A DNA stretch of 64,000 bases. Origin: Gammaproteobacteria bacterium. Lineage in GTDB: Bacteria; Pseudomonadota; Gammaproteobacteria; UBA4575. This document shows, in pieces, positions 9,374-25,070 of this stretch (the first letter of the stretch is position 1; each line of letters begins with the position of its first letter). The DNA lies in assembly GCA_965222615.1 (NCBI GenBank), contig CBDCUI010000007.1, positions 32,001 to 96,000 of the forward strand, given 5' to 3'. Both the position numbers and the translations under genes were made by a program. The notes below the pieces were generated by a model. That model did not search any database, was not told the origin of the DNA, and worked only from the letters and a program-made list of their open reading frames with translations.

Positions 9374-9374
9374 A

Positions 9375-9758
9375 GTGTCTTGTAAATTAATGCTGGGAAA
9401 ACATTTATTACTGTGTTTACTATCGGTTTCGCTTGCCTTTTTACAGATATCCCCTGCTTACGCGGGCATTGTCGGCACTGAAAAATCATTTGCCGAATAT
9501 TCAGCGCAACATGATCGTCAAGTTTTACGCGACCTTATGGCACGCGATGAGGCACGTGAATTACTAGCCACTAATGGCTTAACTGTCGAACAAGCTCAAC
9601 AAAGAGTAAATGCATTAACGGACAGTGAAGCACGTCAACTTGCAGAAAAATTCGATGAACAGCCAGCTGGTGGAATTTTGGTAGCCTTGCTGATTATTTT
9701 CCTCGTATTTATAATTCTAGAAATGGCAGGAGTAACCGACGTATTTACTGGAATTTGA
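9375..9758 (+). CDS. PA2779-family secreted/membrane protein (copy 2, tandem paralog)
   Basis: Same architecture: AGIVGT, RVNALTDSEARQLA...PAGG, GVTDVFTGI. Start may be the ATG at 9390. Confidence 0.8.
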   Translation: MSCKLMLGKHLLLCLLSVSLAFLQISPAYAGIVGTEKSFAEYSAQHDRQVLRDLMARDEARELLATNGLTVEQAQQRVNALTDSEARQLAEKFDEQPAGGILVALLIIFLVFIILEMAGVTDVFTGI

Positions 9759-10768
9759 TTTTAACTAAGAAACTTACTTGTTTAGCAAATGCCCGCACTT
9801 GTGCGGGCATTTTTTTCTTTTGGCTTATACTTTTTGCCTGTGCAACCCCGCAAACCAAGCAATTAATGCTACAAAAACCACAAGATCTACCTGATCAAGC
9901 ATTAATTTCCGAGGTTCCTTTTTACCCACAAGAACAATTTCATTGTGGACCCGCCACTTTAGCGATGGCAATGAATTTTTATGGCGACACCTTATCTGCT
10001 GAAGAAATTGCTAAAGACGTGTTTACTCCTAACTTGAAAGGCAGCCTTCAAGTTGAAATGAAAGCAGCAGTTCGCAAACGCGGTATGTTGGCTTATGAAC
10101 TAACACCAGAACTAGTGTATCTGCTCGCCGAAGTATCTGTAGGACATCCAGTTATAGTTTTGCAGAATCTGTCTATAAAATGGTATCCAATTTGGCATTA
10201 CGCTCTTGTAATTGGCTACAATTTAAAGCGAAATACTTTAATTTTACACACCGGGAAAAATTCTAACTATGAAGTTGCGATAGGTACATTCGAACTGACC
10301 TGGCAACGAGCAAACAATTGGGCATTAGTCATACTACCCAGTGATACTTTACCTAACGATCGCAATCTTATAAATGTATTACAAGCCGCTGTTGATCTGG
10401 AAGAAGTGGGACAAATTGAACATGCGAATCGTGCCTATCAAGCAATAATTAAACGATGGCCAGAAAGTTTCGTCGCCTTAATGGGTGTAGCGAATACCCA
10501 CCTACTCTTAAAACAACCAGAACAAGCAACGAAAAGTTACCTACGTGCAGCGGAGCTGAAACCTAATGAATCCGATATCTACAATAACCTTGCTTACAGT
10601 CTACTTGCGCAATCCTGTTACAACGCGGCACTCAACTCAGTGCGCTGTGCCATTGCTCTACAGCCGAGCAATCTCGAATACCAAAGTTCACTCAAAGAGA
10701 TCACCGCTTTCGATGACAAGAATGATGAAAAAAATTGCCCCATCTTCAAATGTTCAAAACAAAAGTAA
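9755..10768 (+). CDS. PA2778-family C39-like cysteine peptidase lipoprotein with C-terminal TPR repeats
   Basis: Lipobox LFAC, QFHCGPATLAM (catalytic Cys), WHYALVIGY (His), TPR-like C-terminus (YNNLAYSLL). Confidence 0.8.
   Translation: MILTKKLTCLANARTCAGIFFFWLILFACATPQTKQLMLQKPQDLPDQALISEVPFYPQEQFHCGPATLAMAMNFYGDTLSAEEIAKDVFTPNLKGSLQVEMKAAVRKRGMLAYELTPELVYLLAEVSVGHPVIVLQNLSIKWYPIWHYALVIGYNLKRNTLILHTGKNSNYEVAIGTFELTWQRANNWALVILPSDTLPNDRNLINVLQAAVDLEEVGQIEHANRAYQAIIKRWPESFVALMGVANTHLLLKQPEQATKSYLRAAELKPNESDIYNNLAYSLLAQSCYNAALNSVRCAIALQPSNLEYQSSLKEITAFDDKNDEKNCPIFKCSKQK
9787..9816 (+). terminator. Intrinsic terminator-like hairpin inside the 5' end of the peptidase gene
   Basis: AAATGCCCGCAC-TT-GTGCGGGCATTT followed by further T's. 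Confidence 0.7.
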
Positions 10769-10842
10769 TCACTTTAGGCTGACAGCATAATCAGAATCCA
10801 TCTAAACTAGGCAGTTTGGTAATAAGCAGTTATGGTGTAGAC

Positions 10843-12522
10843 GTGGCTAAGCAAACAAGAAAATTCTCATCTATGGTTGTCGATGGTATCGAACGAGCAC
10901 CTAGTCGAGCCATGTTGCGTGCGGTTGGCTTTAAAGACGATGACTTCAGCAAACCCCAAATTGGCATCGCATCAACCTGGAGCATGGTCACGCCATGCAA
11001 TATGCATATTGATACACTAGCCGATGAAGCCGCACTAGGTGTAAATCAAGCAGGCGGTAAAGCGGTAGTCTTTAATACCATCACCATTTCCGATGGTATC
11101 TCGATGGGTACCGAAGGTATGAAATACTCATTGGTTTCACGTGAGGTAATTGCCGATTCGATAGAAACCGTTGTCGGCTGCGAAGGTTTTGACGGCATTG
11201 TTGCCATTGGTGGATGCGATAAAAATATGCCTGGCTGTTTGATTGCCCTAGCAAGGCTGAATCGACCCGCGGTGTTTGTATATGGCGGTACCATCCTGCC
11301 GGGAAGCTATAAAAATAAAAAAGTCGATGTCATCTCCGTATTTGAAGCCGTTGGTCAACACGCGCAACAGTTGTTATCAGACGATGATTTAAAACGAGTG
11401 GAATCTACTGCCATACCCGGTCCTGGCTCTTGTGGTGGTATGTATACTGCGAATACGATGGCATCTGCAATTGAAGCACTGGGGATGAGTTTGCCAAATA
11501 GTTCGGCCCAAAATGCAATTTCAAAAGATAAAAAACAAGATTGCCTAGCTGCAGGACAAGCAGTGATAAAACTAATCGAAAAAGATATATGCCCTAAAGA
11601 CATCATGACGAAAAAGGCGTTCCAAAATGCTATTACAGTCGTGACGGCCTTAGGTGGATCTACTAATGCGGTTTTACACTTACTCGCCATGGCACATGCC
11701 ATCGGAATAAAACTTAATATAGATGAATTTACTCGAATAGGAAAAAAAGTACCGGTGCTGGCTGATTTACGCCCAAGTGGCAAATATATGATGTCAGAAC
11801 TGATCGAAATCGGTGGCATACAACCCTTGATGCGTATGTTATTGGATAGAGGTTTATTACATGGCGATTGTCTAACCGTTACTGGTAAATCATTAAAACA
11901 AAATTTGCGTGGGATTAAGCACTATCCGAAAACACAAAATATCGTTCACGATTTCAATGACCCAATTAAAAAAGATGGACACTTAGTTGTGTTATATGGA
12001 AACCTCGCCCCTGAAGGAGCAGTGGCCAAAATCTCTGGCAAAGAAGGTTTGCGTTTTACTGGTAAAGCACGTGTGTTTGCATCGGAAGAAAAAGCTTTAG
12101 AAAAAATTTTGGATGGCGGAATAAAAAAAGGCGATGTCATCGTCATTCGTTATGAAGGACCGAAAGGGGGACCAGGCATGCGCGAAATGTTATCGCCTAC
12201 CTCGGCCATTATGGGTAAAGGTTTAGGTAAAGATGTAGCATTAATCACGGATGGTCGCTTTTCGGGTGGCAGCCATGGATTTGTGGTAGGACATATCACC
12301 CCTGAGGCGGCAATTGGAGGACCCTTAGGTTTAATAAAAAATGGTGATCAAATAACCATCGATGCCGAAAAACGTGAGATTAACGTTAAGCTCACTAAAC
12401 AAGAACTCAAGCAACGCAAAAAGAAGTGGCGTCCACCAAAACCACGTTATAAGCATGGTGTTTTGGCAAAGTATGCACAACAAGTATCCTCAGCTTCTTT
12501 GGGCGCAGTAACTGACTTATAA
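10843..12522 (+). CDS. ilvD: Dihydroxy-acid dehydratase
   Basis: TPCNMH, SDGISMG, GGCDKNMPG, GSCGGMYTANTM, DGRFSGG. Start uncertain (10816 TTG, 10843 GTG or a later ATG). Confidence 0.96.
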   Translation: MAKQTRKFSSMVVDGIERAPSRAMLRAVGFKDDDFSKPQIGIASTWSMVTPCNMHIDTLADEAALGVNQAGGKAVVFNTITISDGISMGTEGMKYSLVSREVIADSIETVVGCEGFDGIVAIGGCDKNMPGCLIALARLNRPAVFVYGGTILPGSYKNKKVDVISVFEAVGQHAQQLLSDDDLKRVESTAIPGPGSCGGMYTANTMASAIEALGMSLPNSSAQNAISKDKKQDCLAAGQAVIKLIEKDICPKDIMTKKAFQNAITVVTALGGSTNAVLHLLAMAHAIGIKLNIDEFTRIGKKVPVLADLRPSGKYMMSELIEIGGIQPLMRMLLDRGLLHGDCLTVTGKSLKQNLRGIKHYPKTQNIVHDFNDPIKKDGHLVVLYGNLAPEGAVAKISGKEGLRFTGKARVFASEEKALEKILDGGIKKGDVIVIRYEGPKGGPGMREMLSPTSAIMGKGLGKDVALITDGRFSGGSHGFVVGHITPEAAIGGPLGLIKNGDQITIDAEKREINVKLTKQELKQRKKKWRPPKPRYKHGVLAKYAQQVSSASLGAVTDL

Positions 12523-12548
12523 ATAAACTATTAAAAGCATAAATTGTC

Positions 12549-12576
12549 GGCCTATCCTAAATAGTTTAGGATGGCC
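12549..12576 (+). terminator. Stem-loop downstream of ilvD
   Basis: GGCC(T)ATCCTAAA-TAG-TTTAGGATGGCC; weak U-tract. Confidence 0.45.
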
Positions 12577-12644
12577 TCGCTTGATAATTACTACTTAAGT
12601 ATTACCACTAAAAACAACGAAAAATTTCCCTGAAGGAGTTGTCG

Positions 12645-13283
12645 ATGGCGACATTACTATCCCCTGAAGAACTAGAAGCCATAATGGAACGTAAAAACAA
12701 GATGCGTCGTGAGGCCTATGACCGTCGTAATGCACAAGAAGATAAAGATGAGCTCAGTGCACGTGCTTGCGAGAAGTTTATGGCACTACCTGAATATCAA
12801 AATGCCAACGTAGCAATGTGGTATATCGATTGCAGATCCGAAACACGTACTAAACCCCACCTATTAGAAGAAGTCGCTAAAGGCGAGAAAAAAATTATCG
12901 TTCCTTATTGCACCGAAGACGAAAATGGTGAAAACAAGCTAGGTCTTTGGTGGATGGAAAGCTTAGAGGAAATGGTAGTAGGTAAATGGAATATTCTGGA
13001 GCCGCCAAAAGAACTGTGGGGCAACCCTGAAAAAGAGGTCGAGGCCGAAGAGCTCGACATCATCATGGTTCCTGGTGTCGGCTTTGATCGAAAAGGCGGA
13101 CGTATGGGCAACGGACAGGGTTACTATGATCGTTTACTTGAAAAGGCACGACCGGATTGTCCTTTAATAGCATTATGCTATGAATCACAGTTGTTTGATG
13201 AGATTCTAGTCGCACCACATGATGTCTACATGGATAAAGTTATCACTGAAGATGCAGTCTATGATGGCATAGGCCGAGGATAA
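12645..13283 (+). CDS. ygfA: 5-formyltetrahydrofolate cyclo-ligase
   Basis: ILEPP, DIIMVPGVGFDRKGGRMGNGQGYYDRLL, PHDVYMDKVITE; AAGGAG RBS before ATG at 12645. Confidence 0.92.
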   Translation: MATLLSPEELEAIMERKNKMRREAYDRRNAQEDKDELSARACEKFMALPEYQNANVAMWYIDCRSETRTKPHLLEEVAKGEKKIIVPYCTEDENGENKLGLWWMESLEEMVVGKWNILEPPKELWGNPEKEVEAEELDIIMVPGVGFDRKGGRMGNGQGYYDRLLEKARPDCPLIALCYESQLFDEILVAPHDVYMDKVITEDAVYDGIGRG

Positions 13284-13289
13284 TCGCTT

Positions 13290-14213
13290 ATGGCTGCAAA
13301 AATTGATGACACTTATGCAGAGGCGTTTAAAAGTTTATATACAGAATTTTTAATCACTGCACGCGATCGCAAATGGCTAGACCATGCTGTGAACGCAGCA
13401 ACTGGGAATGCCTCAAGTTCAATTTTATGTGACTGCGAAGCAGGCATGGATCGTTATGTAGGCCCTGGTGGAGATGAGAGTTTTACAACACCAGATGGTC
13501 GCCCTGGTGCAATTGTGCAGTTACATGTTCCTCGTTTTCGTAAAGATCGCGTAGAAGCCCTAGAACGTTCGGCATTAGTTCGTATTAGTCAAAATGTATT
13601 AACCTGCCCAACTGCTTCTTGCTTTAATTTGATCGATTCAGAAGAGTATTATCACATGGGCCGTAAAGTAGCTTACTTTGGCAACGGCTATCAAAAACGC
13701 ATTGAACGCTTTGGTCGCAAGATGTGGTGGATTCCGATTCTTGGTGGTGAATTTATTTTAGATCGTCGCTTGGGTTACGCAGACGGCCTCATGGGTGGCA
13801 ATTTATGGTTCTTTGGTGACAGTGTCGATTCCGCATTATTGGCTGCAGAAAAAGGGGTGGAAGCGATACTACCAATGCCGGGGGTCATAACCACCTTTCC
13901 AGGTGGCATTGCGGGCAGTGGTTCCAAGGCCGGCAGTAATTACGACTTCACGATTGCCAGCACTTACGAAAAATTTTGTCCTTTACTGCAAGATGATCCA
14001 ACGGTAGAAGCAGGACTGCCTGAAGGTGTTAACTGTGTAATGGAGATCATTATGAATGGTCAAGGTATGCAACCTATTGTCGATGCCACCCAAGCAGCAA
14101 TCAAAGCTTCTGTAGACACTCCGGGCTTAATTATGATCTCTGCGGGTAATTATGGTGGGCGTTTGGGGAAATCCTTTATCTACCTAGATCCCTCCAAACA
14201 ACCTACAGCTTAA
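13290..14213 (+). CDS. ftr: Formylmethanofuran--tetrahydromethanopterin N-formyltransferase (Ftr/FhcD family)
   Basis: IDDTYAEAF, CDCEAG, TPDGRPG, QNVLTCPT, FPGGIAGSGSKAGS, ISAGNYGGRLG. Confidence 0.9.
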   Translation: MAAKIDDTYAEAFKSLYTEFLITARDRKWLDHAVNAATGNASSSILCDCEAGMDRYVGPGGDESFTTPDGRPGAIVQLHVPRFRKDRVEALERSALVRISQNVLTCPTASCFNLIDSEEYYHMGRKVAYFGNGYQKRIERFGRKMWWIPILGGEFILDRRLGYADGLMGGNLWFFGDSVDSALLAAEKGVEAILPMPGVITTFPGGIAGSGSKAGSNYDFTIASTYEKFCPLLQDDPTVEAGLPEGVNCVMEIIMNGQGMQPIVDATQAAIKASVDTPGLIMISAGNYGGRLGKSFIYLDPSKQPTA

Positions 14214-14362
14214 GAAGCTCTGAGTTTATTCTTCTACTTCGTTAAAAAAGTATTTCGAAATGCTCATGTACTTAGTATGTACACTGCGCTTTCGAAATAT
14301 TTTTTGCCTCGTATAAGACGCTCATGTTATTGAGTAACATGAGCTAATAAATCAGAACTCCC
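14214..14362 (-). repeat. RPE-like palindromic miniature element, copy A
   Basis: Imperfect terminal inverted repeats GAAGCTCTGAGTTTATT...AATAAATCAGAACTCC; minus-strand core CGAGGC...GCGCAGTGTAC-N7-GTACATGAGCATT...AACGAAG shared with copies B and C. Confidence 0.75.
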
Positions 14363-14373
14363 TTTAATTTGTT

Positions 14374-15252
14374 ATGACTTCGGAATTTGAAAAAACATCT
14401 GGTGGGGCCATCTTGATGGATGGAAAAGCTGTCGCTGAAGTACTGCAAACTAGAGTAGCCAACAAATTAGCACAGTCTCCCAACTCCAAAGTAACTCTTG
14501 CAACAGTATTAATTGGTAACGACCCTGCTAGTAATCTTTATGTAGAAATGAAGCAACGTCGTGCAACTGCGGTCGGTATACAGTCTAAGCATATACAACT
14601 ATCTAGCGATGTATCCATGCCTCAAGCATCTGAAGAAGTCTTAACACTGGTTGAAAATCCCCATGTACATGGAATTCTGATTCAGTTACCACTTCCTCCT
14701 CAACTCGATACTCACAAGATTATTGATTTGCTCCCAGCTGAAAAAGATGTGGATGGCTTAAGTAACAACAATCTTGGCAAGTTATTACGTGGAGAACCTG
14801 GACTAGTACCCTGTACACCCTTAGGGGTAATGTGTTTATTGGAGCACTATAATATTCCTACTGCTGGCCAACGAGCGGTGGTAATTGGCCGCTCCACATT
14901 AGTAGGACTACCACAAGTATTATTATTGGCACGCAAAGGAATCGATGCGACCGTTACGCTAGCGCATTCACGCAGTGGTGATTTAGTGGAAATTACAAAA
15001 TCAGCAGACATCATTATTGCTGCAGCTGGCATGGCTCGTTTAGTTACCAAGAAACATGTCAAGCCTGGCGCCACCGTAATTGATGTTGGGGTAACACGTA
15101 CCGATGACGGTATTCAAGGTGATGTAGATTTTGATCAAGTACAATCCACTGCAGGCGCCATCACTCCCATGCCGGGCGGTACAGGACCGATGACCGTAGC
15201 ATGTTTATTGGAAAACACATTGCATGCAGCCAAGTTGCAAAATGCGCTCTAA
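14374..15252 (+). CDS. folD: Bifunctional methylene-THF dehydrogenase/methenyl-THF cyclohydrolase
   Basis: GILIQLPLP, EKDVDG, PCTPLG, VIGRSTLVGLP, ITPMPGGTGPMTVACLLEN. Confidence 0.95.
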   Translation: MTSEFEKTSGGAILMDGKAVAEVLQTRVANKLAQSPNSKVTLATVLIGNDPASNLYVEMKQRRATAVGIQSKHIQLSSDVSMPQASEEVLTLVENPHVHGILIQLPLPPQLDTHKIIDLLPAEKDVDGLSNNNLGKLLRGEPGLVPCTPLGVMCLLEHYNIPTAGQRAVVIGRSTLVGLPQVLLLARKGIDATVTLAHSRSGDLVEITKSADIIIAAAGMARLVTKKHVKPGATVIDVGVTRTDDGIQGDVDFDQVQSTAGAITPMPGGTGPMTVACLLENTLHAAKLQNAL

Positions 15253-15262
15253 GATAAGTGCA

Positions 15263-15297
15263 TTAACCCGGTTAAGTGCGATTTATTACCCTATAAT
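15263..15297 (+). promoter_or_regulatory. sga promoter region: palindromic LysR/CbbR(QscR)-type box plus TATAAT -10
   Basis: TTAAC-CCG-GTTAA (T-N11-A, TNA-N7-TNA) at 15263-15275; TATAAT at 15292-15297. Confidence 0.4.
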
Positions 15298-15483
15298 ATC
15301 CATCACGTAATATGCAAATTGCTTGAGCCGACTATAGGGCTTATGGCAAGATGCTGAACTTTTCGCGCAACTGTGTTGCTTGCGAATGTGGCAGCTCCGG
15401 CCGCTGATATAAAAACTGTGATAATAATCGGGGCTCATTCACTTTTTTAATTTTTAATAAAATTCAATAAAAGGGTTCACGTT

Positions 15484-16752
15484 ATGCCTGGAGAAAAATT
15501 ATCATTCCCTGGAAGAAATTATTTATTCGCGCCTGGTCCTACTCATATTCCTCAGGCAGTTCAAAACGCTATGATCTGCCCACAAGAAGATCACCGTGCT
15601 CCTGATTTTCCACAACTCGTTAAACCCTTACTCAAAGACGTTAAAAAAATATTTAAAACCACAAAAGGAACATGTTTTTTGTTCCCCGCAACGGGAACCG
15701 CTGGTTGGGAGGTTGCCTTAGCAAATACCATGTCTCCTGGCGACAAAATTCTGACTACACGTTTTGGACAATTTAGTCATTTATGGTACGACCTGTCTTG
15801 CCGCATCGGTTTAGATGTACAACTTGTGGAGACACCATGGGGCGAAGGTGTACCCATCGACAAATTTAAAAAGATTTTACAAGCCGACAAAAAACATCAA
15901 ATTAAAGCAGTAGTCGTTTGTCATAATGAAACGGCCACGGGTGTAACTAGCGATATCGCTGCATTAGGTAAAATGCTGAAACAAATTAAGCACCCTGCAC
16001 TACTCATGGTTGATGGCGTAAGCTCTATCGCTAGTATCGATTTTCGTATGGATCAGTGGGGAGTCGATGTGGCAGTGAGTGGTTCTCAAAAAGGATTCAT
16101 GCTTCCTGCGGGCATGGCCATACTTGCATTTAGCCCTCGCGCAATGAATGCTCGCAAAAAAGCGAAATGCGCGCGTTGTTTTCTCGATATTCAAGATCAT
16201 ATTAATGCCAATAAAGATGGCTACTTTCCTTACACACCTTCTGTACCCATGTTACGTGGACTGCGTGCAGCACTTGATTTGCTGATGGACGAAGGTCTGG
16301 AGAATGTATTTAAACGGCACCATCGCTTGGCCGAAGGTGTGCGTAAAGCAGTCAAGGCATGGGGTATGAAACCTTGTGCCAGAGCGCCTAAATGGTATTC
16401 CGATACGGTTACCGCAATTATGGTTCCATCTAGTGTCAATGCTGCGGAAGTTATCCATATTGCTTACCATCGCTACAATATTTCACTCGGCGCAGGTTTA
16501 TCCAAAGTTGCTGGCAAAGTGTTTCGCATTGGTCACTTAGGTGATAATAACGAAGCACGCATGATGGCAGTATTGGGCTCGGTTGAAATGGCGATGAACG
16601 ATGCCGGCATGAAAATTAAACCTGGTAGTGGAGTAGCAGCGGCAGAAGAATATTATCGTAAGACTGCCAAAAAGATTAAAAAGTTTGGAGCTACTCAAGC
16701 ACCGCGTGAAGCACGTACCGCTACTAAAAAGAAAAGAGCAAAAAGAAAATAA
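15484..16752 (+). CDS. sgaA: Serine--glyoxylate aminotransferase
   Basis: PGPTHIP, EDHRAPDF, HNETATGVTSD, DGVSSIAS, GSQKGFMLPAG (PLP lysine), FRIGHLG; serine-cycle context. Confidence 0.93.
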   Translation: MPGEKLSFPGRNYLFAPGPTHIPQAVQNAMICPQEDHRAPDFPQLVKPLLKDVKKIFKTTKGTCFLFPATGTAGWEVALANTMSPGDKILTTRFGQFSHLWYDLSCRIGLDVQLVETPWGEGVPIDKFKKILQADKKHQIKAVVVCHNETATGVTSDIAALGKMLKQIKHPALLMVDGVSSIASIDFRMDQWGVDVAVSGSQKGFMLPAGMAILAFSPRAMNARKKAKCARCFLDIQDHINANKDGYFPYTPSVPMLRGLRAALDLLMDEGLENVFKRHHRLAEGVRKAVKAWGMKPCARAPKWYSDTVTAIMVPSSVNAAEVIHIAYHRYNISLGAGLSKVAGKVFRIGHLGDNNEARMMAVLGSVEMAMNDAGMKIKPGSGVAAAEEYYRKTAKKIKKFGATQAPREARTATKKKRAKRK

Positions 16753-16770
16753 ATTGAATAACTAAAACAC

Positions 16771-16991
16771 GGGAGGCTATGATTTATTAGCCATGTAAAC
16801 ATGGCGACTTAGACGAGGCAAAAAATGTTGAGACAAATCTGCTGGGAGCAGATTTGGGAAGCTCTGCTAGCCGCAGGCCGAGTACCAGGAAGGTACGAGT
16901 CAAAGCGGAGTTTACACGCTAGTTTGCGGCTTTGCCGCCCCGCATTTTGAAACATTTTTTAACGAAGTATAAGAATAAATCAGAGCTTCCA
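16771..16991 (+). repeat. RPE-like palindromic element, copy B, with nested insert(s)
   Basis: Termini GGAGGCTATGATTTATT...AATAAATCAGAGCTTCC and core CGAGGCAAAAAATGTT...GCGGAGTTTACAC...AACATTTTTTAACGAAG as in copy A; extra ~70 bp CAAATCTGCTGGGAGCAGATTTG...GTACCAGGAAGGTAC inside. Confidence 0.75.
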
Positions 16992-17023
16992 TATAACATT
17001 CACTAAAATTTAGGTAGAAGCTT

Positions 17024-17965
17024 ATGAGTTTTACTCAATACAAACCCGCACAACTCCGCGTACAACGTTGCGAATTGGCTGTTCCCGGATCGAATCCTAA
17101 AATGATGGAAAAAGCAGTCACATGTGCTGCGGATTATGTTTTTCTAGATTTGGAAGACGCCGTCGCACCGGACGATAAAGTCCAAGCACGAAAAAATGTA
17201 ATTGCTGCGCTAAAAGAACATGACTGGAAAGGTAACGGCAAAACTGTATCCGTGCGTATCAATGGATTAGATACCCATTATATGTACCGCGATGTGGTAG
17301 ACGTGGTCGAACAAGCCGGCGATAAACTAGATACCATCTTGATTCCAAAAGTAGGTACAACCGGGGATGTGTATATGGTAGATGCCATGGTGACCCAGAT
17401 TGAAGAAGCCATGGGACTCAACAATAAAATTGGCTTGGAGGCGTTGATTGAAACGGCATTAGGCATGGCTAATGTGGAAGCCATTGCCACTTCAAGTCCA
17501 CGTATGGAGGCCATGCATTTTGGTGTGGCGGATTATGCTGCAAGTAATCGTGCCCGTACGGTGAATATCGGTGGTCTAAATCCCGATTACCCAGGCGATC
17601 AATGGCATGCGGCGATTTCGCGCATGACTGTGGCTTGCCGTGCCTATGGATTACGCCCTATTGATGGCCCGTTTGGCGATTTCAATGACCCTGATGGTTA
17701 TTTACTAGCCGCTCGACGTGCTGCCGCCCTTGGCTGTGAAGGTAAATGGGCCATTCACCCAAAACAAATCGAACTGGCTAACGAGGTATTCTCACCTCCT
17801 GAAGCAGAAGTAACCAAGGCAAAAAGAATCCTTGAGGAGCTAGAAAAGGCAGCCAAAGAAGGTAAAGGTGCTGCCTCTTTAGATGGAAAAATGATCGATG
17901 CGGCTTCGGCCCGAATGGCTGAAAATGTGGTTCGAGCTGCCGATGCGATTGCCGCAAAATCTTAA
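17024..17965 (+). CDS. mcl: Malyl-CoA lyase
   Basis: RVQRCELAVPGSNP, FLDLEDAVAP, VRINGLDTHYMYRDVV, HFGVADYAAS, DGPFGDF, GKWAIHP. Confidence 0.93.
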   Translation: MSFTQYKPAQLRVQRCELAVPGSNPKMMEKAVTCAADYVFLDLEDAVAPDDKVQARKNVIAALKEHDWKGNGKTVSVRINGLDTHYMYRDVVDVVEQAGDKLDTILIPKVGTTGDVYMVDAMVTQIEEAMGLNNKIGLEALIETALGMANVEAIATSSPRMEAMHFGVADYAASNRARTVNIGGLNPDYPGDQWHAAISRMTVACRAYGLRPIDGPFGDFNDPDGYLLAARRAAALGCEGKWAIHPKQIELANEVFSPPEAEVTKAKRILEELEKAAKEGKGAASLDGKMIDAASARMAENVVRAADAIAAKS

Positions 17966-18147
17966 GTTATAGCGCTAATGCTGAGCTAGAACAGATAACG
18001 CAGTTAATATTGCTTATTTTTTAAGCAATTATCCAACAAGAGGGTTTGTCGAGAGGCGACCGAATAGGCTATAAAAGGCCCTCGGTCCGACACATAAACT
18101 TCGACCGACGCTGATAAGAATAAATCATTTTCTCGGGAGGGAATTAA

Positions 18148-19323
18148 GTGGATATCCATGAGTATCAAGCGAAAGAGCTATTGTCTGAATTTGGAGTGGG
18201 CATTGCGCCAGGGGGGCTAGCTTACAGCCCTGAACAAGCCGTTTACCGTGCTAAAGAAATTGGTGGCAATAAATGGGCAGTGAAGGCCCAAATTCATTCT
18301 GGTGCACGCGGCAAAGCCGGCGGTATTAAACTTTGCACCAATGATGAAGAAATTTGGCAAGCTGCAGATGAACTACTGGGCAAACGTCTGGTCACTCATC
18401 AGACCGGCCCTACAGGAAAAGTGGTTTATCGTCTATACGTTGAACAAGCAACCGATATAGAGAATGAAATTTATTTAGCACTTGTCCTTGACCGTAATAA
18501 ACAACGGGTTGTGATTGTTACATCTTCTGAAGGTGGCATGGATATTGAAGAAGTTGCCGCAACCAAGCCTGATTCCATTCACCGGCTAGAAGTTGAGCCA
18601 GCAGTGGGCTTACGCGATTTTCAAGCACGCGAACTCGCTTTCGCGCTTGGTATTAAACCTGAATTAATTAGCCAAGCCGTGCATTGTATTAAAGGTGCGT
18701 ATCGCGCATTTCGTGATTTAGACGCCACCATGGTTGAGATTAATCCTTTAGTCATTACTAAAGACAATCATGTCTTAGCTTTAGATGCAAAAATGGGTTT
18801 TGATGATAATGCCTTATTCCGTCGCCCTAATATCTCTGAATTACGTGATAAATCTCAAGAAGATCCGCGCGAAACGGCTGCATCCGATCGTGGCTTAAGT
18901 TACGTGGGCTTGGATGGCGACATCGGCTGCATGATTAATGGTGCCGGCTTGGCGATGGCTACCATGGATATGATCAAACACAAAGGTGGTGAGCCCGCAA
19001 ACTTTTTAGATATTGGTGGTGGTGCATCTCCAGATCGAGTTACCAAGGCATTTAAATTAGTGCTCGATGATGAAAACGTTAAAGCCATGCTAGTAAATAT
19101 CTTCGCAGGTATTAATCGTTGTGATTGGATTGCTGAAGGCGTAATACAAGCCTTCGGTAAACTAGATGTGAAGGTTCCGGTGGTAGTGCGCCTTTCTGGA
19201 ACCAATGTCGAAAAAGGCATGCAAATGCTAAAAGACAGTGGTTACCCCATTATTACGGCTGATACGTTAGCAGAAGCGGCAGAAAAAGTAGTCGGTGAAC
19301 GTAACCGCGTTGTCGGCTCATAA
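18148..19323 (+). CDS. mtkA: Malate--CoA ligase (malate thiokinase) beta subunit
   Basis: [50 protein letters not shown] (MtkA-type rather than SucC GGIVRCD); lies next to mcl. Confidence 0.9.
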
Positions 19324-19396: not shown

Positions 19397-20287
19397 ATGA
19401 CAATAATGATTGATGAAAATACTAAAGTTTTAGTACAAGGTTTTACAGGGAAAATCGGAACCTTCCATGCCGAAGAAATGCTTGAGTATGGTACTAAAGT
19501 TGTTGGTGGGGTAACGCCAGGCAAGGGTGGACAAACGCATATGGATTTACCTGTATTCAATACTATGAAAGAGGCCGTTGCGGAAACCGGAGCGGATGCC
19601 AGTATTGTATTTGTACCTGCGGCATTTGCTGCAGATGGTGTTATGGAAGCTGCGGATGCGGGAATTAAGACCTGTGTATGCATCACTGATGGTATCCCTG
19701 CACAAGACATGATGCGTGTGAAACGTTATATGTTCCGTTATAAAAGAGAAGATCGTATGCGCCTTACCGGACCCAACTGCGCCGGATCAATTAGTCCAGG
19801 AAAATGTTTACTCGGAATCATGCCCGGTCATATTTATATGCAAGGAAATGTGGGTGTCGTTGCCCGCTCCGGGACACTCGGTTATGAAGGGGCTTCGCAG
19901 ATGAAAGCCGCAGGAATTGGTATCACTACCAGCATTGGTATTGGTGGCGACCCGATTAATGGCTCGTCACATCGCGACATACTGGAGTTATTTGAAGCCG
20001 ATCCTGAAACTAAAGCCGTTTTAATGATTGGTGAAATCGGCGGCCCTCAAGAAGCGGAAGCTGCTGAATACTTTAAGCATCACATGAGCAAACCGTTAGT
20101 TGCTTACATTGCTGGCCTCACAGCACCGAAAGGTCGCCGTATGGGGCATGCGGGTGCAATTGTTTCTGGTAAAGGTGAAAGTGCAGCAGAAAAAGTGGAA
20201 ATGTTAAAAGAGGCCGGCGTGACCGTTGCCCCTAATCCATCTGAATTAGGCTCAACCATGGAACGAGTAATGAAAGAAGTTGCTTAG
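19397..20287 (+). CDS. mtkB: Malate--CoA ligase alpha subunit
   Basis: QGFTGKIGTFH, TDGIPAQDMMRVKRYM, GPNCAG, RRMGHAGAI phospho-His motif. Confidence 0.9.
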   Translation: MTIMIDENTKVLVQGFTGKIGTFHAEEMLEYGTKVVGGVTPGKGGQTHMDLPVFNTMKEAVAETGADASIVFVPAAFAADGVMEAADAGIKTCVCITDGIPAQDMMRVKRYMFRYKREDRMRLTGPNCAGSISPGKCLLGIMPGHIYMQGNVGVVARSGTLGYEGASQMKAAGIGITTSIGIGGDPINGSSHRDILELFEADPETKAVLMIGEIGGPQEAEAAEYFKHHMSKPLVAYIAGLTAPKGRRMGHAGAIVSGKGESAAEKVEMLKEAGVTVAPNPSELGSTMERVMKEVA

Positions 20288-20316
20288 GCGATAATTAGAT
20301 CTAGGAGATAACAAAA

Positions 20317-21288
20317 ATGAGCAAGCTAAAAGTCATCGTCTCACGAGCCTGGCCTAAGGAGGTTGAAGCAACATTAAAAGAAAAGTATGACGTGCAACTT
20401 AATGAAAATGACGTTGCTATGACTAAAGATGAAATGAAAAATGCTTTAGGAAATTGTGATGCTTTTCTACCGACTGTAACTGATCCAGTGGATGCAGAAG
20501 TATTAAGTGCGGAACCCTTACGTGCAAAATTTATCGGTAATTTTGGAGTTGGTTTTAACCACATCGATTTAGATGCTGCGAAAGCACGAGGTCTTACTGT
20601 TACCAACACACCAGAAGTACTAACTGACTGCACTGCAGATATTGCAATGACCTTATTGCTAACTGCTGCACGCCGTACTAGCGAAGGTGAACGTCATTTA
20701 CGTTCAAATTCATGGACGGGTTGGCGACCTACCCATATGTTAGCAACTAAAGTCACCGGTAAGACATTAGGACTTATTGGAATGGGGCGTATTGCTCAGG
20801 CCATGGCGCAACGCGCGCATTTTGGATTTGGAATGAAAATAATTTTTTCGGATCCATACCCTCCTCCCGCCGAAGTAATTAAAAAGTTTAATGCGCAACA
20901 ATGTGATTCCATTGATGAAGTACTGGCTAACTCAGATTTTGTTTCCATTCATTGCCCTGGCGGCAAGGACACCTACCACTTATTAAGTGAAGAAAATCTT
21001 GCCAAAATGAAATCTACTGCTTTTTTAATAAATTCAGCTCGCGGCGATGTCGTTGACAACGAGGCCTTAATTGACGCACTTAAGAACGGGGTAATCGCCG
21101 GTGCAGGTTTAGATGTATTTGAAGGTGAGCCAAACTTGGATGAACGCTTTATTGAGCTTGAAAATGCTGTGTTACTGCCGCATCTTGGAAGTGCCTCAAC
21201 TGAAACTCGTGTGGCCATGGGAAATCGAGTGTTGGAGAACCTAGCAGCATTTGAAGCAGGCGAAACCCCAAGAGACAAACTCGTTTAA
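20317..21288 (+). CDS. hprA: D-glycerate dehydrogenase / hydroxypyruvate reductase (D-2-hydroxyacid dehydrogenase family)
   Basis: NFGVGFNHID, GLIGMGRIA, INSARG, GLDVFEGEP, LPHLGSAS; substrate inferred from the serine-cycle context. Confidence 0.75.
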   Translation: MSKLKVIVSRAWPKEVEATLKEKYDVQLNENDVAMTKDEMKNALGNCDAFLPTVTDPVDAEVLSAEPLRAKFIGNFGVGFNHIDLDAAKARGLTVTNTPEVLTDCTADIAMTLLLTAARRTSEGERHLRSNSWTGWRPTHMLATKVTGKTLGLIGMGRIAQAMAQRAHFGFGMKIIFSDPYPPPAEVIKKFNAQQCDSIDEVLANSDFVSIHCPGGKDTYHLLSEENLAKMKSTAFLINSARGDVVDNEALIDALKNGVIAGAGLDVFEGEPNLDERFIELENAVLLPHLGSASTETRVAMGNRVLENLAAFEAGETPRDKLV

Positions 21289-21417: not shown

Positions 21418-24192
21418 ATGAATGACTCTTCTCCACTTTCTTGGACACAACTGACTAGAGTTGCTACGGGTCGCACAATCATCGATCCGTCTGCTAGTTA
21501 TGAAGACGGCCTCGTAGAGCTTCTTTATCAGCAATTTTTAAGTGTTATCCGCACTCGTCAACCGGATATCGAGGCGTACTTGGAAGATGAGAAAGATATT
21601 CGTGACGTTACTGAATCACAAGCTTTATATGTACTTGAAGCTTATGGAATCTGGTATCAGCTTCTTAGCATTGCCGAACAAAACGCAATGGTGCAGCAAC
21701 GACGCCAAATTGAAAAAGAATACAGTCGCGATCGTGTACCAGGTACATTTGCTTATACTTTTTCTACGGCGGCACAACGTGGCACTCAAGCACAAGAAAT
21801 TCAAAAAATTCTGAACTATAGCTTCATTTGTCCAGTAATCACTGCACATCCAACCGAAGCCAAGCGTGTAACCGTTTTAGAAATTCACCGCCGCATTTAT
21901 GTTTTACTCAAACAACTAGAGCTTGAGCGTTGGACACCACGAGAACGTGACGACTTAGCACATGAATTGCGTAACGAAATCGACCTGCTTTGGTTAACCG
22001 GTGAAATCCGTCTGGAAAAACCCACGGTTGCACAAGAAGTAGCCTGGGGATTACATTTCTTTACCGAATCACTATTTGATGGCGTAATGCAACTCTATGC
22101 GAGATTTGACCGAGCCTTAGAACAAGCTTATCCACATTTCGACTTTGAAGTACCACCACTATTTCGCTTTGGCACATGGATTGGTGGTGACCGTGACGGG
22201 AACCCAAACGTCACAGCCAAAGTTACTGCCTCTGCTATCCATGCTAACGCGAAGGCTTGCATAAAACGCTATCGGCAAAATATTTATGAGCTTGGTGCAA
22301 AATTAAGCATTGCCAGTCACTCAGTTACTATTCCTGAAAATTTTATGCAGGCATTGCAAAAGAAATTAGAATTCCATAGCAAAGCAGAAACATTTTCAAA
22401 ACGTAATCCAGGAGAAGTGTTTCGCCAGTACTTACGGTGCATATTATTAAGTATTGATGCTACATTAAATAATCTAGATAACCCTAACAAATCCACTATT
22501 GCTTATAAGCGCGCAGCAGACCTAGTAGCAGACCTGAAAACACTTGAGCAAGGTTTAGTTGAAGCCAAATGTGAACACTTAGCAGCAAAGGATGTACGTC
22601 CTTTACGTCACATGGTGGATACCTTTGGTTTTCGTACAGCAAGCTTAGATCTACGTGAAAATACTACCGTTACAAATAGTGTACTTGCAGAAATTTGGCA
22701 AGTATTACATCAAAAAACTCACTTAGATCTTCCAGACTTTAAGTCCAACGAATGGAAAGAATGGATTTTACGCGAGCTAATGCAACCACTACGGGTAGTG
22801 CCACGAATTGACTATTTATCAGAACAAGCCCAATCCACATTAGCGATGCTTGAACAAGTTAAACATTATCAACGCAAGTTAGATCCAAAAACCTTCGGTG
22901 TTATTGTATTAAGCATGACCCAGACTTCGGCAGATGTGCTCGGTGTCTATTTGTTAGCAAAATATGTAGGTCTATTCACAGATGCAGATGGATTAGAAGC
23001 GTGTCGAATTTTAGTGGTGCCCTTATTAGAAACGATTGAAGATCTGGAGAATGGACCTAATATCTTGCAAGAATTACTAGATCACGCTTTTGTTCGACGT
23101 ACGATTCGAAAACATGGTGGCTGCCAGGAAATTATGGTCGGCTATTCTGATTCAAATAAAGACGGTGGGTTTCTTACTTCAAATTGGATCATTAGCAAAG
23201 CGCAATCTCAAATTCATGAAGCTGGCAAAAAATTAAATACACCTGTTTCTTTTTTCCATGGCCGTGGCGGTTCTGTTAGTCGTGGTGGTGCACCCAGCGG
23301 TCGTGCAATTGCTGCCCAACCTGTAGGTACCATCGATGGGCGTATGCGGGTCACAGAACAAGGTGAAGTGGTTTCTTATAAATACGCTAACCGTGGCTTT
23401 GCCGAAGAGCAAATGGAAATCATTGCCGCAAGCGTTTTGACTCATACACTGATGTCAGGGAATGATCCTGCTTATCAAGTGAATGCGGAATTAGATGAAG
23501 CAATGGAAGCGCTCTCTGGTACTGCCTATGTTACCTATAGAAAATTTATCGAATCTCCAGGCTTAGTCGAGTTCTATCAGCAAGCTAGTCCGGTAGAAGA
23601 ATTAGCGTTAATGAAAATTGGCTCCCGCCCGGCACGTAGATTTGGCGCAGCAACATTAGAAGATTTGCGAGCAATACCTTGGGTATTTGCATGGACACAG
23701 AATCGCATTTTAGTACCAGGTTGGTATGGTGTTGGCAGCAGCTTTGAACAGCTTATTAGTATACGTGGGGAATTTGGTAAAGATCTTTTACAACAGTTAT
23801 ATGAAAAACATTCACTGTTTAAATTAATTTTAGACGGTGTCGAAAAAACACTTTTGCTTGTTGATATGGAAGTTGCAGAAAAATACTCAGCGCTCGTTAC
23901 TAACACAGATTTTAGAGAAAACATTTTCTCTAGCATAAAAAATGAATACGAACTAACGACAAAAATGGTTTTGCAAATAACTGGAGAAGATCAGCTATGC
24001 GATCGATTTCCTAACTTTAAGCGACACTTTTACAGACGAAGTGATTCGTTAAACCAAGTAGGCATTGAGCAAGTTGAACTAATAAAAAAGTTTCGTGACG
24101 ATGAACCAAATGAAAAAAATATACAAGACGTATTGATTCCTCTGCTTTTATCCATCAACTGTGTAGCGGCAGGAATTGGAAGCACAGGTTAA
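21418..24192 (+). CDS. ppc: Phosphoenolpyruvate carboxylase
   Basis: TAHPTE, WIGGDRDGNP, MVGYSDSNKDGG, FHGRGGSVSRGG, RAIPWVFAWTQ. Confidence 0.96.
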   Translation: MNDSSPLSWTQLTRVATGRTIIDPSASYEDGLVELLYQQFLSVIRTRQPDIEAYLEDEKDIRDVTESQALYVLEAYGIWYQLLSIAEQNAMVQQRRQIEKEYSRDRVPGTFAYTFSTAAQRGTQAQEIQKILNYSFICPVITAHPTEAKRVTVLEIHRRIYVLLKQLELERWTPRERDDLAHELRNEIDLLWLTGEIRLEKPTVAQEVAWGLHFFTESLFDGVMQLYARFDRALEQAYPHFDFEVPPLFRFGTWIGGDRDGNPNVTAKVTASAIHANAKACIKRYRQNIYELGAKLSIASHSVTIPENFMQALQKKLEFHSKAETFSKRNPGEVFRQYLRCILLSIDATLNNLDNPNKSTIAYKRAADLVADLKTLEQGLVEAKCEHLAAKDVRPLRHMVDTFGFRTASLDLRENTTVTNSVLAEIWQVLHQKTHLDLPDFKSNEWKEWILRELMQPLRVVPRIDYLSEQAQSTLAMLEQVKHYQRKLDPKTFGVIVLSMTQTSADVLGVYLLAKYVGLFTDADGLEACRILVVPLLETIEDLENGPNILQELLDHAFVRRTIRKHGGCQEIMVGYSDSNKDGGFLTSNWIISKAQSQIHEAGKKLNTPVSFFHGRGGSVSRGGAPSGRAIAAQPVGTIDGRMRVTEQGEVVSYKYANRGFAEEQMEIIAASVLTHTLMSGNDPAYQVNAELDEAMEALSGTAYVTYRKFIESPGLVEFYQQASPVEELALMKIGSRPARRFGAATLEDLRAIPWVFAWTQNRILVPGWYGVGSSFEQLISIRGEFGKDLLQQLYEKHSLFKLILDGVEKTLLLVDMEVAEKYSALVTNTDFRENIFSSIKNEYELTTKMVLQITGEDQLCDRFPNFKRHFYRRSDSLNQVGIEQVELIKKFRDDEPNEKNIQDVLIPLLLSINCVAAGIGSTG

Positions 24193-24212: not shown

Positions 24213-25070
24213 ATGAAAAAACTTTTATACCATTTTGATACGGATCCAATCCCAAGTGTATTTGACTCCGTGGTAGCTTACGATGGTGGCGCAGATCACG
24301 TCACTCAACTTAGTGGTGTAAATGCAGAAAATTGCAGCGGCTTAGTTGAAGGAGCAATTTATACACGCGCACCTAAAGACAAGAAAAACACTGCTATTTT
24401 CATCGGCGGCAGTGATTTAATCGCAGGACAAAACCTTTTTAAAGTAGTGCAAAGTCAGTTTTTTCAAAAATTCAGTGTATCGGTAATGCTAGATAGTAAT
24501 GGTTGTAATACCACTGCAGCTGCTGGTGTAGCACTGTTAAATAATGCATCATCATTAGCAGGAAAAATTGCCGTGGTCCTTGCTGGAACCGGACCCGTTG
24601 GTCAACGAGCAGCTGTTTTGCTTGCTAAAAGTGGCGCTGAAGTACGCTTGACTTCACGAAAACAATCTCGGTCCGTTGAGGCATGTGACGAAATGAAAGA
24701 TAGATTTGGAGTTGACATGATTCCAATGCATGCAAGCGATACAGACTCAACAAACCAAGCACTGGATGGGGCTCATGTTGTATTTGCTGCCGCTAAAGCA
24801 GGCATTCAGTTACTTAATGCAGAACAATGGCAAAAGCACTCATCGCTTGAACTCATGGCAGATGTTGGCACCGCACAAACATTAGGCTTTGAAGGCATTG
24901 ATATGATGGACAAGGATACGATTCGACACGGCAAGAGAATATTTGGCGGCATTGGCATTGGTGCCTTAAAACTTAAATTACATCGTGCATGTATTGCTAA
25001 GCTATTTGAATCCAATGACCAGGTTCTCGATGCCGAGACAATTTACAGTATTGCTCAAAAAATGGTGTAG
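24213..25070 (+). CDS. mtdA: NADP-dependent methylene-H4MPT/methylene-H4F dehydrogenase
   Basis: MKKLLYHFDTDPIPSVFDSVVAYDGGADH, TAIFIGG, VMLDSNGCNTTAAAGV, GTGPVGQRAA, KLKLHRACIAKLF. Confidence 0.92.
   Translation: MKKLLYHFDTDPIPSVFDSVVAYDGGADHVTQLSGVNAENCSGLVEGAIYTRAPKDKKNTAIFIGGSDLIAGQNLFKVVQSQFFQKFSVSVMLDSNGCNTTAAAGVALLNNASSLAGKIAVVLAGTGPVGQRAAVLLAKSGAEVRLTSRKQSRSVEACDEMKDRFGVDMIPMHASDTDSTNQALDGAHVVFAAAKAGIQLLNAEQWQKHSSLELMADVGTAQTLGFEGIDMMDKDTIRHGKRIFGGIGIGALKLKLHRACIAKLFESNDQVLDAETIYSIAQKMV

Follow-up and report, generated by a model that had tools for sequence, protein, structure and literature searches.

The window, a stretch of 64,000 nucleotides of gammaproteobacterial DNA, carries on its forward strand a gene for an MTHFS-like protein (a homolog of 5-formyl-THF cyclo-ligase), a gene for a divergent Ftr/FhcD paralog and folD, followed by sga-mcl-mtkAB-hpr-ppc-mtdA (Table 1). 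The MTHFS gene, which likely starts at an ATG with AGGAG in front, ends in a TAA codon at 13281–13283, and six bases separate it from the ATG of ftr. Open reading frames and family matches agree with a preliminary description of this DNA, which had placed a lone ftr 6 bp 3′ of a cyclo-ligase gene, with folD next and the serine-cycle genes beyond. As it had also stated, fhcA, fhcB and fhcC are absent from the genes adjoining the window ftr, and no FTHFS or FTCD_C/Fch domain occurs in any window ORF scanned. An Rfam scan of positions 10500–25000 with E-values up to 1 returned zero riboswitch matches, and a promoter and terminator scan was uninformative because it found fewer sites than in shuffled sequence.

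Table 1. Genes of the MTHFS-ftr locus and the family matches on which their assignments are based.
Feature	Position	Strand	Evidence
MTHFS-like (5-formyl-THF cyclo-ligase homolog), pair-type	12645..13283 (ORF 12639/12645-13283)	+	PF01812 129.8 bits; TIGR02727 130.4, cut-off 84.9
Divergent Ftr/FhcD paralog, proposed THF-directed formyltransferase	13290..14213	+	PF01913 + PF02741; NF002554 312.9, cut-off 297
FolD-type methylene-THF dehydrogenase / methenyl-THF cyclohydrolase	14374..15252	+	PF00763 + PF02882
sga, serine-glyoxylate aminotransferase-like	15484..16752	+	PF00266; NF045640 598 bits
mcl, malyl-CoA lyase-like	17024..17965	+	PF03328
mtkA, malate-CoA ligase beta subunit	18148..19323	+	NF010647 703 bits, cut-off 604
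mtkB, malate/succinate-CoA ligase alpha subunit	19397..20287	+	NF004230 437.8 bits
hpr, hydroxypyruvate/glyoxylate reductase	20317..21288	+	PF02826 + PF00389
ppc, PEP carboxylase	21418..24192	+	PF00311 792.7 bits
MtdA ortholog, NADP-dependent methylene-H4MPT / methylene-THF dehydrogenase	24213..25070	+	PF09176; MtdA structures 1LU9, 6TGE

The Ftr paralog matches both lobes of the family over its full length (PF01913, 142.6 bits; PF02741, 156.7 bits) and lies only just over the cut-offs of NF002554 (Table 1) and TIGR03119 (295.8 vs 292.6), while the two canonical Ftr copies of the same genome score 449 and 427 on the former model and 427 and 416 on the latter. Outside its clade, no full-length Ftr exceeds 48% identity to it. 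Among Gammaproteobacteria, paralog sequences are 72–100% identical to one another and at most 43% identical to canonical Ftr, with no intermediates, and clustering at 50% leaves a single full-length representative of the clade. A phylogeny, one of the checks proposed in the preliminary description, was run as a quick tree and places the window Ftr in a separate clade, whose branch splits it from all 39 other rows with 100% SH-aLRT support. Judged from these comparisons, the paralog constitutes a tight, isolated clade of the Ftr family. It is closer to stand-alone archaeal Ftr (233 bits) than to FhcD (170 bits), and fhcABC or fwd genes never adjoin it across 80 loci.

When 24 paralog rows were compared with 32 canonical rows, 23 core positions, the catalytic glutamate included, were found to be common to both. 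This glutamate is kept as E252 in every one of 23 paralog sequences; in the available text of PMC6926001, Glu252 of M. extorquens FhcD is the catalytic glutamate, equivalent to Glu245 of M. kandleri. Four residues that are near-invariant in canonical enzymes (81–94% conserved) are changed in the paralog (R to E19, D to N132, M to L151, and N to Y226), which also has clade-specific inserts at 61–65, 82–83, and 240.

The window MTHFS is the sole MTHFS of its genome, and none of 10 genomes tested encodes a second MTHFS besides the pair-type one, which rules out an extra, specialised copy; as the sole copy, it may simply be a housekeeping salvage enzyme. Its motifs are invariant or nearly so (N-terminal K..R, E68, P89, E121-P122, D195, E204, and the block VPG...R-x-G-x-G-x-G-Y-Y-D-R) and are common to 1YDM, 1SOU, and 2JCB. 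With the catalytic glutamate of the paralog invariant and all MTHFS motifs kept, both enzymes look active. Pair-type MTHFS proteins are 65–100% identical among paralog holders and 26–36% identical to ordinary MTHFS, and the gammaproteobacterial sequences are 47–67% identical to the Planctomycete members, a pattern indicating a separate, slowly evolving clade that tracks the Ftr clade. That this clade has diverged so far from ordinary MTHFS might just as well reflect a change of substrate, for example to 5-formyl-H4MPT. In 14 control genomes, PF01812 had no match in two H4MPT-only methanogens and was present in 11 others.

The window FolD scores well above the cut-offs of both PF00763 and PF02882. 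It is matched by 30 of 30 NCBIfam FolD models, all below cut-off among the 25 listed (best 301 vs 465), while a second FolD of the genome, encoded beside ftfL, passes two NCBIfam FolD models. At 61 of 77 loci a FolD gene lies no more than 1.2 kb downstream of the pair, and the cluster FolD is the sole FolD in G006, G001, and G002. The window MtdA matches the M. extorquens MtdA structures 1LU9 and 6TGE over its full length (E 1e-90) and could reduce methenyl-THF produced by MTHFS; a second Mtd gene, 32% identical, is situated near mch and fae on contig 9.

The co-occurrence of ftr and ygfA, another check put forward in the preliminary description, proved consistent throughout. Wherever sequence ahead of the paralog was available, in 77 of 77 related loci, its immediate upstream neighbour is an MTHFS gene in the same orientation, an arrangement far from chance. 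Pair-type MTHFS was present in 10 of 10 gammaproteobacterial paralog holders and in 86 of 86 holders of a Planctomycete-class sample (genomes of at least 85% completeness), where the two genes adjoin in 41 genomes, share a contig but lie far apart in 8, and are split between contigs in 37. In 37 paralog-free genomes, MTHFS was absent or 26–36% identical, with one intermediate at 53%; this relative, in G385, adjoins two MtdA/MtdB-type genes. At most loci the pair's neighbours are FolD and serine-cycle genes. In G003 the pair adjoins genes for H4MPT and methylofuran biosynthesis, and on one Planctomycete contig it stands alone among unrelated genes. Since mtkA is absent from both Planctomycete holders tested and unrelated neighbours occur, we reject a serine-cycle assignment for the pair. 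We attribute two MTHFS-Ftr fusion candidates (P0292 and P0293) to errors of assembly or gene calling, as they are singletons whose alignments break into frame-shifted stretches, and a search for longer proteins from the Ftr side returned one unrelated 723-aa protein and no fusion.

The premise that the genome is devoid of ftfL had to be abandoned: the source genome has a single FTHFS (ftfL) gene on a different contig, beside the second folD and a soxB-like gene. Nevertheless, the proposed comparison of the pair with ftfL absence showed ftfL to be rare among holders. In the window's order, 55 of 56 genomes carry the paralog and 7 of 56 have ftfL over the cut-off; ftfL was not found in G006, a closed genome of the same genus, and it is present in 1 of 35 other paralog holders. 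Ftr-bearing Gammaproteobacteria with mtkA over the cut-off have ftfL in 20 of 20 cases without the paralog and in 3 of 9 with it, and in these three holders ftfL is unlinked to the serine-cycle operon. In paralog-free relatives, ftfL adjoins an equivalent sga-mcl-mtkAB-hpr-ppc operon, and in 7 of the 20 paralog-free genomes it lies no more than 10 kb from mtkA. Among Planctomycetes, whose kinship in the sample is unstated, ftfL occurs in 6 of the 86 holders and, among 165 non-holders, in 70 (it is also missing from the other 95), these and the preceding contrasts being raw counts uncorrected for shared ancestry. The pair and ftfL are distributed complementarily.

The source genome encodes three Ftr proteins, the other two inside fhcBADC and fwdDBADC clusters, and the window Ftr is therefore not the genome's only one, a possibility that the preliminary description had raised. 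The presence of ftfL and of two complete formyl-MFR complexes means that growth can be explained there without the pair. More broadly, mch and fae were detected in 5 of 5 paralog holders tested, and FhcA in 34 of 35. FhcA and canonical Ftr are absent, with the paralog and MTHFS kept, from G003 (a closed gammaproteobacterial chromosome) and from G690 and G730 (Planctomycete drafts for which completeness is stated as the sample's threshold of at least 85%). In these three genomes the H4MPT pathway has no visible outlet other than the paralog, which suggests that formyl groups would leave 5-formyl-H4MPT via the paralog itself. G003 retains MfnB- and MfnE-like genes, below cut-offs, and through these methylofuran may still have a role there. 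According to the available text of PMC6926001, 97% of M. extorquens methylofuran is bound to Fhc, which makes a free formyl-methylofuran donor doubtful. The donor named in the preliminary description, formyl-MFR, may thus need amending, as the Fhc-free genomes point to 5-formyl-H4MPT.

On balance, we lean towards reading the Ftr paralog and MTHFS as a two-enzyme unit that would pass formyl groups from H4MPT or methylofuran to the THF pool without free formate. Ftr formylates N5 of a pterin, and the paralog would be an Ftr whose pterin site came to accept THF. It would move the formyl group of N5-formyl-H4MPT or formyl-methylofuran, placed there by Mch and Ftr chemistry, onto N5 of THF, giving a form of the cofactor that, to our knowledge, only MTHFS consumes. 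MTHFS would then convert 5-formyl-THF to 5,10-methenyl-THF at the expense of one ATP, and this ATP-dependent cyclisation would pull the formyl transfer forward; ATP is needed because transfer from formyl-H4MPT to N10-formyl- or methenyl-THF is uphill. Methenyl-THF would be reduced by MtdA or FolD to methylene-THF, feeding the serine cycle, or alternatively opened by FolD to 10-formyl-THF for biosynthesis. In this way the pair would stand in for FhcA hydrolysis and FtfL (with Fch) at the equal cost of one ATP. Gene anatomy, clade structure, co-occurrence, the distribution relative to ftfL, and retention without Fhc are observed; which two substrates the paralog uses, what this MTHFS clade acts on, and which way the formyl groups flow are inferred. 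The formate-independent, ATP-driven bridge of the preliminary description thus survives in part, favoured by the co-occurrence, the complementarity with ftfL, the equivalent position of ftfL, and retention in Fhc-free genomes; two of its premises fail for this genome, which has ftfL and three Ftr genes. In the literature searched we found neither this pairing nor a folate-dependent Ftr described. We are evenly divided on the wider proposition that the pair is the first direct C1 hand-over from H4MPT/methylofuran to THF by an N5-formylating Ftr and an ATP-dependent cyclo-ligase, formate-free and FtfL-independent, which apparently arose in Planctomycetes, spread to marine and sponge-associated Gammaproteobacteria, and in some genomes replaced the formate-producing Fhc complex altogether.

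It is also conceivable, if unlikely, that both proteins have ordinary functions and are co-selected, the paralog being a free-standing formyl-methylofuran:H4MPT formyltransferase isozyme and MTHFS recycling 5-formyl-THF, a by-product of serine hydroxymethyltransferase, with both serving a high C1 flux. Both do pass their family models, the paralog is nearer stand-alone archaeal Ftr than FhcD, MTHFS is the sole copy wherever tested, and the three genomes with the cluster FolD as their sole FolD make these look like normal folate genes. However, such functions leave unexplained why one particular MTHFS clade accompanies one particular Ftr clade in all 10 and all 86 holders even when the genes are unlinked, why the pair occurs in solitary form in Planctomycetes (two tested lacking mtkA), why ftfL is depleted among holders, and why genomes without FhcA and canonical Ftr, in which formyl-methylofuran would be useless, retain the pair. 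A scheme confined to H4MPT strikes us as quite improbable. Here the MTHFS-like protein would be an ATP-dependent 5-formyl-H4MPT cyclo-ligase that, with the paralog, drives formyl-methylofuran irreversibly to methenyl-H4MPT in the reductive direction. Mch already interconverts 5-formyl-H4MPT and methenyl-H4MPT without ATP, and all 5 holders examined carry mch; in Fhc-free genomes a futile loop with Mch would be expected. The constant presence of H4MPT genes with the pair, the low identity to ordinary MTHFS, and the location of the G385 relative beside two MtdA/MtdB-type genes would fit this scheme, but it accounts neither for the distribution of ftfL nor for the proximity of FolD to the pair, and two H4MPT-only methanogens among the 14 controls have no PF01812 match.

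Two further readings seem to us very improbable. The pair could act outside C1 flux, for example in formylation and cyclisation during pterin or furan cofactor synthesis or on another substrate pair, as would suit its location in G003, where the neighbouring genes serve H4MPT and methylofuran synthesis; non-folate roles have also been proposed for MTHFS-family paralogs. Against this, most loci are flanked by FolD and serine-cycle genes rather than biosynthesis genes, the MTHFS passes the MTHFS equivalog model, and the ftfL pattern is left unexplained. Least probable of all is a reverse or disposal function, whereby the paralog would take formyl off a folate, 5-formyl-THF or some other form, and hand it to H4MPT or methylofuran for oxidation or ATP-free salvage. 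Ftr reactions are near equilibrium, and Fhc, able to dispose of formyl, is present in most holders, but MTHFS runs irreversibly away from 5-formyl-THF and would be redundant with its obligate partner, and the formyl group would be without a destination in genomes lacking FhcA.

We know of no connection between the H4MPT and folate pools in textbook methylotrophy other than free formate and FtfL. If the proposed formyl bridge is correct, a direct, ATP-pulled formyl hand-over would constitute a new junction in C1 metabolism and would account for the ability of many serine-cycle Gammaproteobacteria, and of one third of the Planctomycetes sampled, to do without ftfL. The long-puzzling H4MPT genes of Planctomycetes would gain a biosynthetic purpose, and MTHFS would become a main-line rather than a repair enzyme. 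The affinity of FtfL for formate is poor, and the pair would also offer a compact two-gene module for engineered formaldehyde or methanol assimilation that bypasses a leaky formate pool.

Compared with known Ftr/FhcD proteins (1FTR, 2FHJ, 1M5H, 1M5S, and chain D of 6S6Y), the paralog has the same two-lobe architecture over its full length, with full-length matches to archaeal Ftr at E 1e-66 to 1e-68, but differs in forming its own clade, in the four changed canonical residues, and in always having an MTHFS partner. Encoding together with fhcA, fhcB, and fhcC, expected of a bacterial FhcD, is not seen: the paralog is lone in the window, and its clade has MTHFS rather than fhc genes beside it at all 77 loci. 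Divergent second Ftr copies (Ftr2) of unknown function are described in ANME-1, ANME-2a/b, Archaeoglobales, and some methanogens (PMC9012536); the available text of that paper reports no MTHFS partner for these archaeal paralogs, whereas the window paralog is bacterial and MTHFS-partnered.

The proposed pair shares with the FtfL-Fch-MtdA route of Methylorubrum extorquens its input (C1 oxidised via H4MPT), its methenyl/methylene-THF output, the cost of one ATP, genes located beside the serine-cycle operon, and the presence of MtdA. Unlike that route, it would need no free formate, FtfL, or Fch, and its entry point would be N5-formyl-THF rather than N10-formyl-THF. An M. extorquens ftfL mutant cannot grow on C1. 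Linkage of ftfL to serine-cycle genes, taken here as a mark of C1 entry by FtfL, is not seen in the source genome, where ftfL is on another contig. Pair-type MTHFS resembles the salvage enzyme MTHFS/YgfA in passing TIGR02727 (130 vs 84.9) and in its family motifs; YgfA is a repair enzyme, while the pair-type protein would carry main flux. Finally, MtdA is a dehydrogenase and, unlike the role proposed for the paralog, moves no C1 unit between carriers, but it provides a precedent within the same organisms for a single active site that takes both H4MPT- and THF-bound C1 units.

The preliminary description placed a MTHFS homolog, an Ftr homolog and a FolD-type gene in a row ahead of the serine-cycle genes, and the ORFs, family matches and a 6-base gap confirm this layout: the MTHFS ATG at 12645 has AGGAG ahead of it, and 6 bases separate its stop codon from the ftr ATG, with GAGGA within the 3' end of the MTHFS gene. 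A domain scan of the window ORFs detected no FTHFS or Fch domain in any of them, in agreement with the reported lack of ftfL (formate-THF ligase) and fch from the window. The PA2779/PA2778 genes, an ABC ATPase and ilvD are kept upstream of the pair in its closest relatives. By their domains, the GFA-domain and glutathione S-transferase-like genes may have a glutathione-linked formaldehyde function.

Positions of features in the window and in related stretches
Feature	Position	Strand	Remarks
Two tandem PA2779-family (DUF6627) genes and PA2778-family C39 peptidase with TPR repeats	9002-10768	+	
MTHFS homolog	12645-13283	+	PF01812 129.8 bits; TIGR02727 130.4 vs cut-off 84.9
Ftr homolog	13290-14213	+	both lobes present
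FolD-type gene	14374-15252	+	
sga, mcl, mtkA, mtkB, hpr, ppc	downstream of FolD-type gene		mtkA 703 bits vs cut-off 604
MtdA ortholog	24213-25070		full-length match to M. extorquens MtdA 1LU9, 6TGE, E 1e-90
GFA-domain protein	31712-32140	+	weakly matches S-(hydroxymethyl)glutathione synthase
Glutathione S-transferase-like gene	33399-34124	+	near GFA-domain gene
862-aa ORF	51347-53935	+	fatty-acid hydroxylase domain and all three GH3 (acyl-amido synthetase) domains; within lowest-GC stretch of window (0.31-0.35)
Small HicB-family antitoxin-like ORF	59680-60021	+	adjoins an unassigned 123-aa ORF
Second formyl-MFR cluster, Fwd-like	G000 contig 9, 583-590 kb (L006:5113-12425)		
ftfL locus	G000 contig 9, 209-214 kb (L007)		with second folD and sarcosine-oxidase-beta-like gene
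G385 MTHFS and Mtd-type genes	L099:6605-9482		divergent orientation beside two tandem MtdA/MtdB-type genes

The window's genome (G000; 3.10 Mb, 9 contigs, 99.8% complete) encodes three Ftr genes by genome-wide search, of which the window copy is a lone third paralog. The two canonical copies sit in complete contig 9 clusters, fhcBADC and fwdDBADC-ferredoxin, and score 449 and 427 bits against NF002554, compared with 313 for the paralog (cut-off 297). The genome also has a XoxF/MxaF-type dehydrogenase and an H4MPT island in which mch and fae are joined by a further Mtd gene, 32% identical. The proposal of a formate-independent link had supposed that ftfL might be missing; ftfL lies on contig 9, adjoining a second, better-scoring folD and a soxB-like gene, and that premise therefore fails for G000. 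By gene content, this ftfL-folD group resembles an accessory module for folate-linked methyl oxidation more than a serine-cycle gene. In pair-holder G024, ftfL (contig 26) is in two pieces with an internal TGA, which may reflect decay. In the Fwd-like cluster, a FwdD homolog (82 bits; cut-off 175, not reached) is accompanied by a full-length FwdB, part of which resembles formate dehydrogenase alpha, and by FwdA, Ftr, FwdC, ferredoxin and a GltD-like oxidoreductase. The cluster could encode a genuine formyl-methanofuran dehydrogenase, here in a gammaproteobacterium; PMC5020050 states that fwdD homologs are absent from Proteobacteria.

The window Ftr falls into a separate clade. Word-indexed searching with the paralog returned at least 120 clusters at 79-94% identity, while an exhaustive HMMER search of cluster representatives recovered one full-length clade member, P0125 (67%), and some fragments; no other full-length protein exceeded 48% identity. 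In a tree made by a quick method from 52 rows (41 of 150 listed representatives, restricted to 280-330 aa, with 9 paralogs and the 2 canonical G000 copies), the clade is split off by a branch with 100% SH-aLRT and has very short internal branches. The paralog matches archaeal Ftr structures at 226-233 bits and M. extorquens FhcD at 170 bits. When 24 paralog and 32 canonical rows are compared (the latter being 30 near-whole-length representatives outside the clade and the 2 G000 copies, with fragments and long-branch rows excluded), 23 positions are common to both, four canonical positions (81-94% conserved) are changed in the paralog (R to E19, D to N132, M to L151, N to Y226), and the paralog carries inserts at 61-65, 82-83 and 240. 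The catalytic glutamate, E252, is invariant in paralogs; its role is taken from PMC6926001. All holders seen are uncultured MAGs, and the clade members whose names were seen carry only the generic Ftr name in databases.

Pair-type MTHFS is an obligate partner of this paralog, and the expected co-occurrence held in 10/10 gammaproteobacterial and 86/86 Planctomycete holders. With one genome per species, 393 stretches encode a relative; among the best 80 of these, MTHFS lies immediately upstream on the same strand in all 77 loci where 700 bp or more of upstream sequence is available (the remaining 3 are truncated), and FolD follows within 1.2 kb in 61/77. Where all nine genes are present (22 loci), conservation is highest for the Ftr paralog (median 94.7% identity vs 73-90% for the other genes). 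On one Planctomycete contig, recognised as such by a DUF1559 gene and the like, the pair is isolated amid unrelated genes. The MTHFS is the sole PF01812 match in 10/10 holders tested (an extra match in G000, 17 bits, is under cut-off), yet it forms a clade apart from ordinary MTHFS. The pair-type MTHFS always adjoins the paralog in the 10 gammaproteobacterial holders, where it is 65-100% identical, and ordinary MTHFS of 37 paralog-free genomes is 26-36% identical to it or gives no match, with the exception of G385 (53%), an intermediate form whose arrangement may be intermediate or ancestral. Two metagenome proteins, P0292 and P0293, were rejected as MTHFS-Ftr fusions; frame-shifted stretches interrupt their alignments, and each is probably an artefact of read-through between two in-frame genes separated by 9 bases.

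The paralog occurs in 55/56 sampled genomes of the window's order, all of one family, and ftfL exceeds the cut-off in 7/56; it was not found in G006, a closed genome of the window's genus. A further 35 holders gave FhcA in 34 and ftfL in 1. In a gammaproteobacterial class sample (400 genomes scored, one not scored), 51 encode Ftr; the paralog is present in 11 (72-100%), and the other 40 have canonical Ftr alone (at most 43%); removal of four unpublished-flagged genomes (1 holder, 3 canonical-only) left 10 and 37. Counted over genomes of shared ancestry, as are all our ftfL comparisons, ftfL is present in 3/10 holders (3/9 of those with mtkA over cut-off), 20/20 paralog-free genomes with mtkA and 10/17 without it. 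All six genomes with Ftr and mtkA that lack ftfL carry the paralog. Three paralog-free relatives share the sga-mcl-mtkAB-hpr-ppc operon and have ftfL immediately next to ppc, and by coordinates 7/20 paralog-free mtkA genomes have ftfL no more than 10 kb from mtkA; in the three ftfL-positive holders it is unlinked. The anticipated association with ftfL absence stands as rarity of ftfL among holders, yet not as its absence, G000 itself having the gene.

A Planctomycete-class sample around a holder (251 genomes, each at least 85% complete) repeats this pattern. Of these, 242 have an Ftr and 86 have the paralog type (55-79%, the next values being 46% or lower); pair-type MTHFS (47-67%, gap down to 40%) is present in 90, four of them having that MTHFS alone, and ftfL in 76: 6/86 holders vs 70/165 non-holders (naive Fisher 1e-9, which ignores kinship and so is not a true probability). 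Among holders, 41 have paralog and MTHFS within 2 kb of each other, 8 have them widely separated on a single contig, and in 37 the two are on separate contigs. Because the clade is more diverse in Planctomycetes and Planctomycete-labelled members are basal in a tree whose root is not fixed, these data suggest that it may have originated there and later been transferred to Gammaproteobacteria.

Ftr places formyl on N5 of a pterin. To our knowledge, the only reaction joining both enzymes in series is N5-formylation of THF followed by ATP-dependent cyclisation; we know of no consumer of N5-formyl-THF other than MTHFS. We lean modestly towards such a direct transfer as the function of the pair, the best-favoured of the readings considered. 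The paralog would formylate N5 of THF, MTHFS would cyclise the product with ATP to methenyl-THF, and the operon's MtdA and FolD would carry this onward, with Fch not needed. The energy of THF entry otherwise comes from FtfL; here the ATP step of MTHFS would replace it. The free formyl-methylofuran donor first proposed fits the Fhc-less genomes less well. G003, a closed 2.6 Mb gammaproteobacterial chromosome, has mch, fae and a PQQ dehydrogenase, its single Ftr is the paralog, and FhcA was not found (best match 37 bits vs cut-off 393); the Planctomycete drafts G690 and G730 likewise have one Ftr match each, the paralog, and profile scores did not reveal FhcA. In these three genomes the paralog is the only visible outlet for 5-formyl-H4MPT. 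G510 has FhcA, and canonical Ftr was not found in its very fragmented assembly. The Fhc-less holders, together with the 97% of methylofuran bound to Fhc in M. extorquens (PMC6926001), suggest 5-formyl-H4MPT as donor, the paralog either acting on methylofuran itself or dispensing with it.

Other, less likely readings compete with this bridge. Both proteins may keep ordinary functions and be co-selected. The MTHFS could be an H4MPT-only cyclo-ligase. The paralog might instead transfer formyl in reverse, or the pair might serve cofactor biosynthesis; in G003 it is adjoined by hpr, RFAP synthase and MfnB-like and MfnE-like genes, the latter two under cut-offs.

A full-text literature search, with subscription journals and supplements outside its scope, returned no Ftr-MTHFS pairing or folate-acting Ftr, and the accessible part of PMC5020050 does not mention the clade. 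PMC9012536 notes only archaeal Ftr2 proteins, which are likewise extra, uncharacterised Ftr paralogs.
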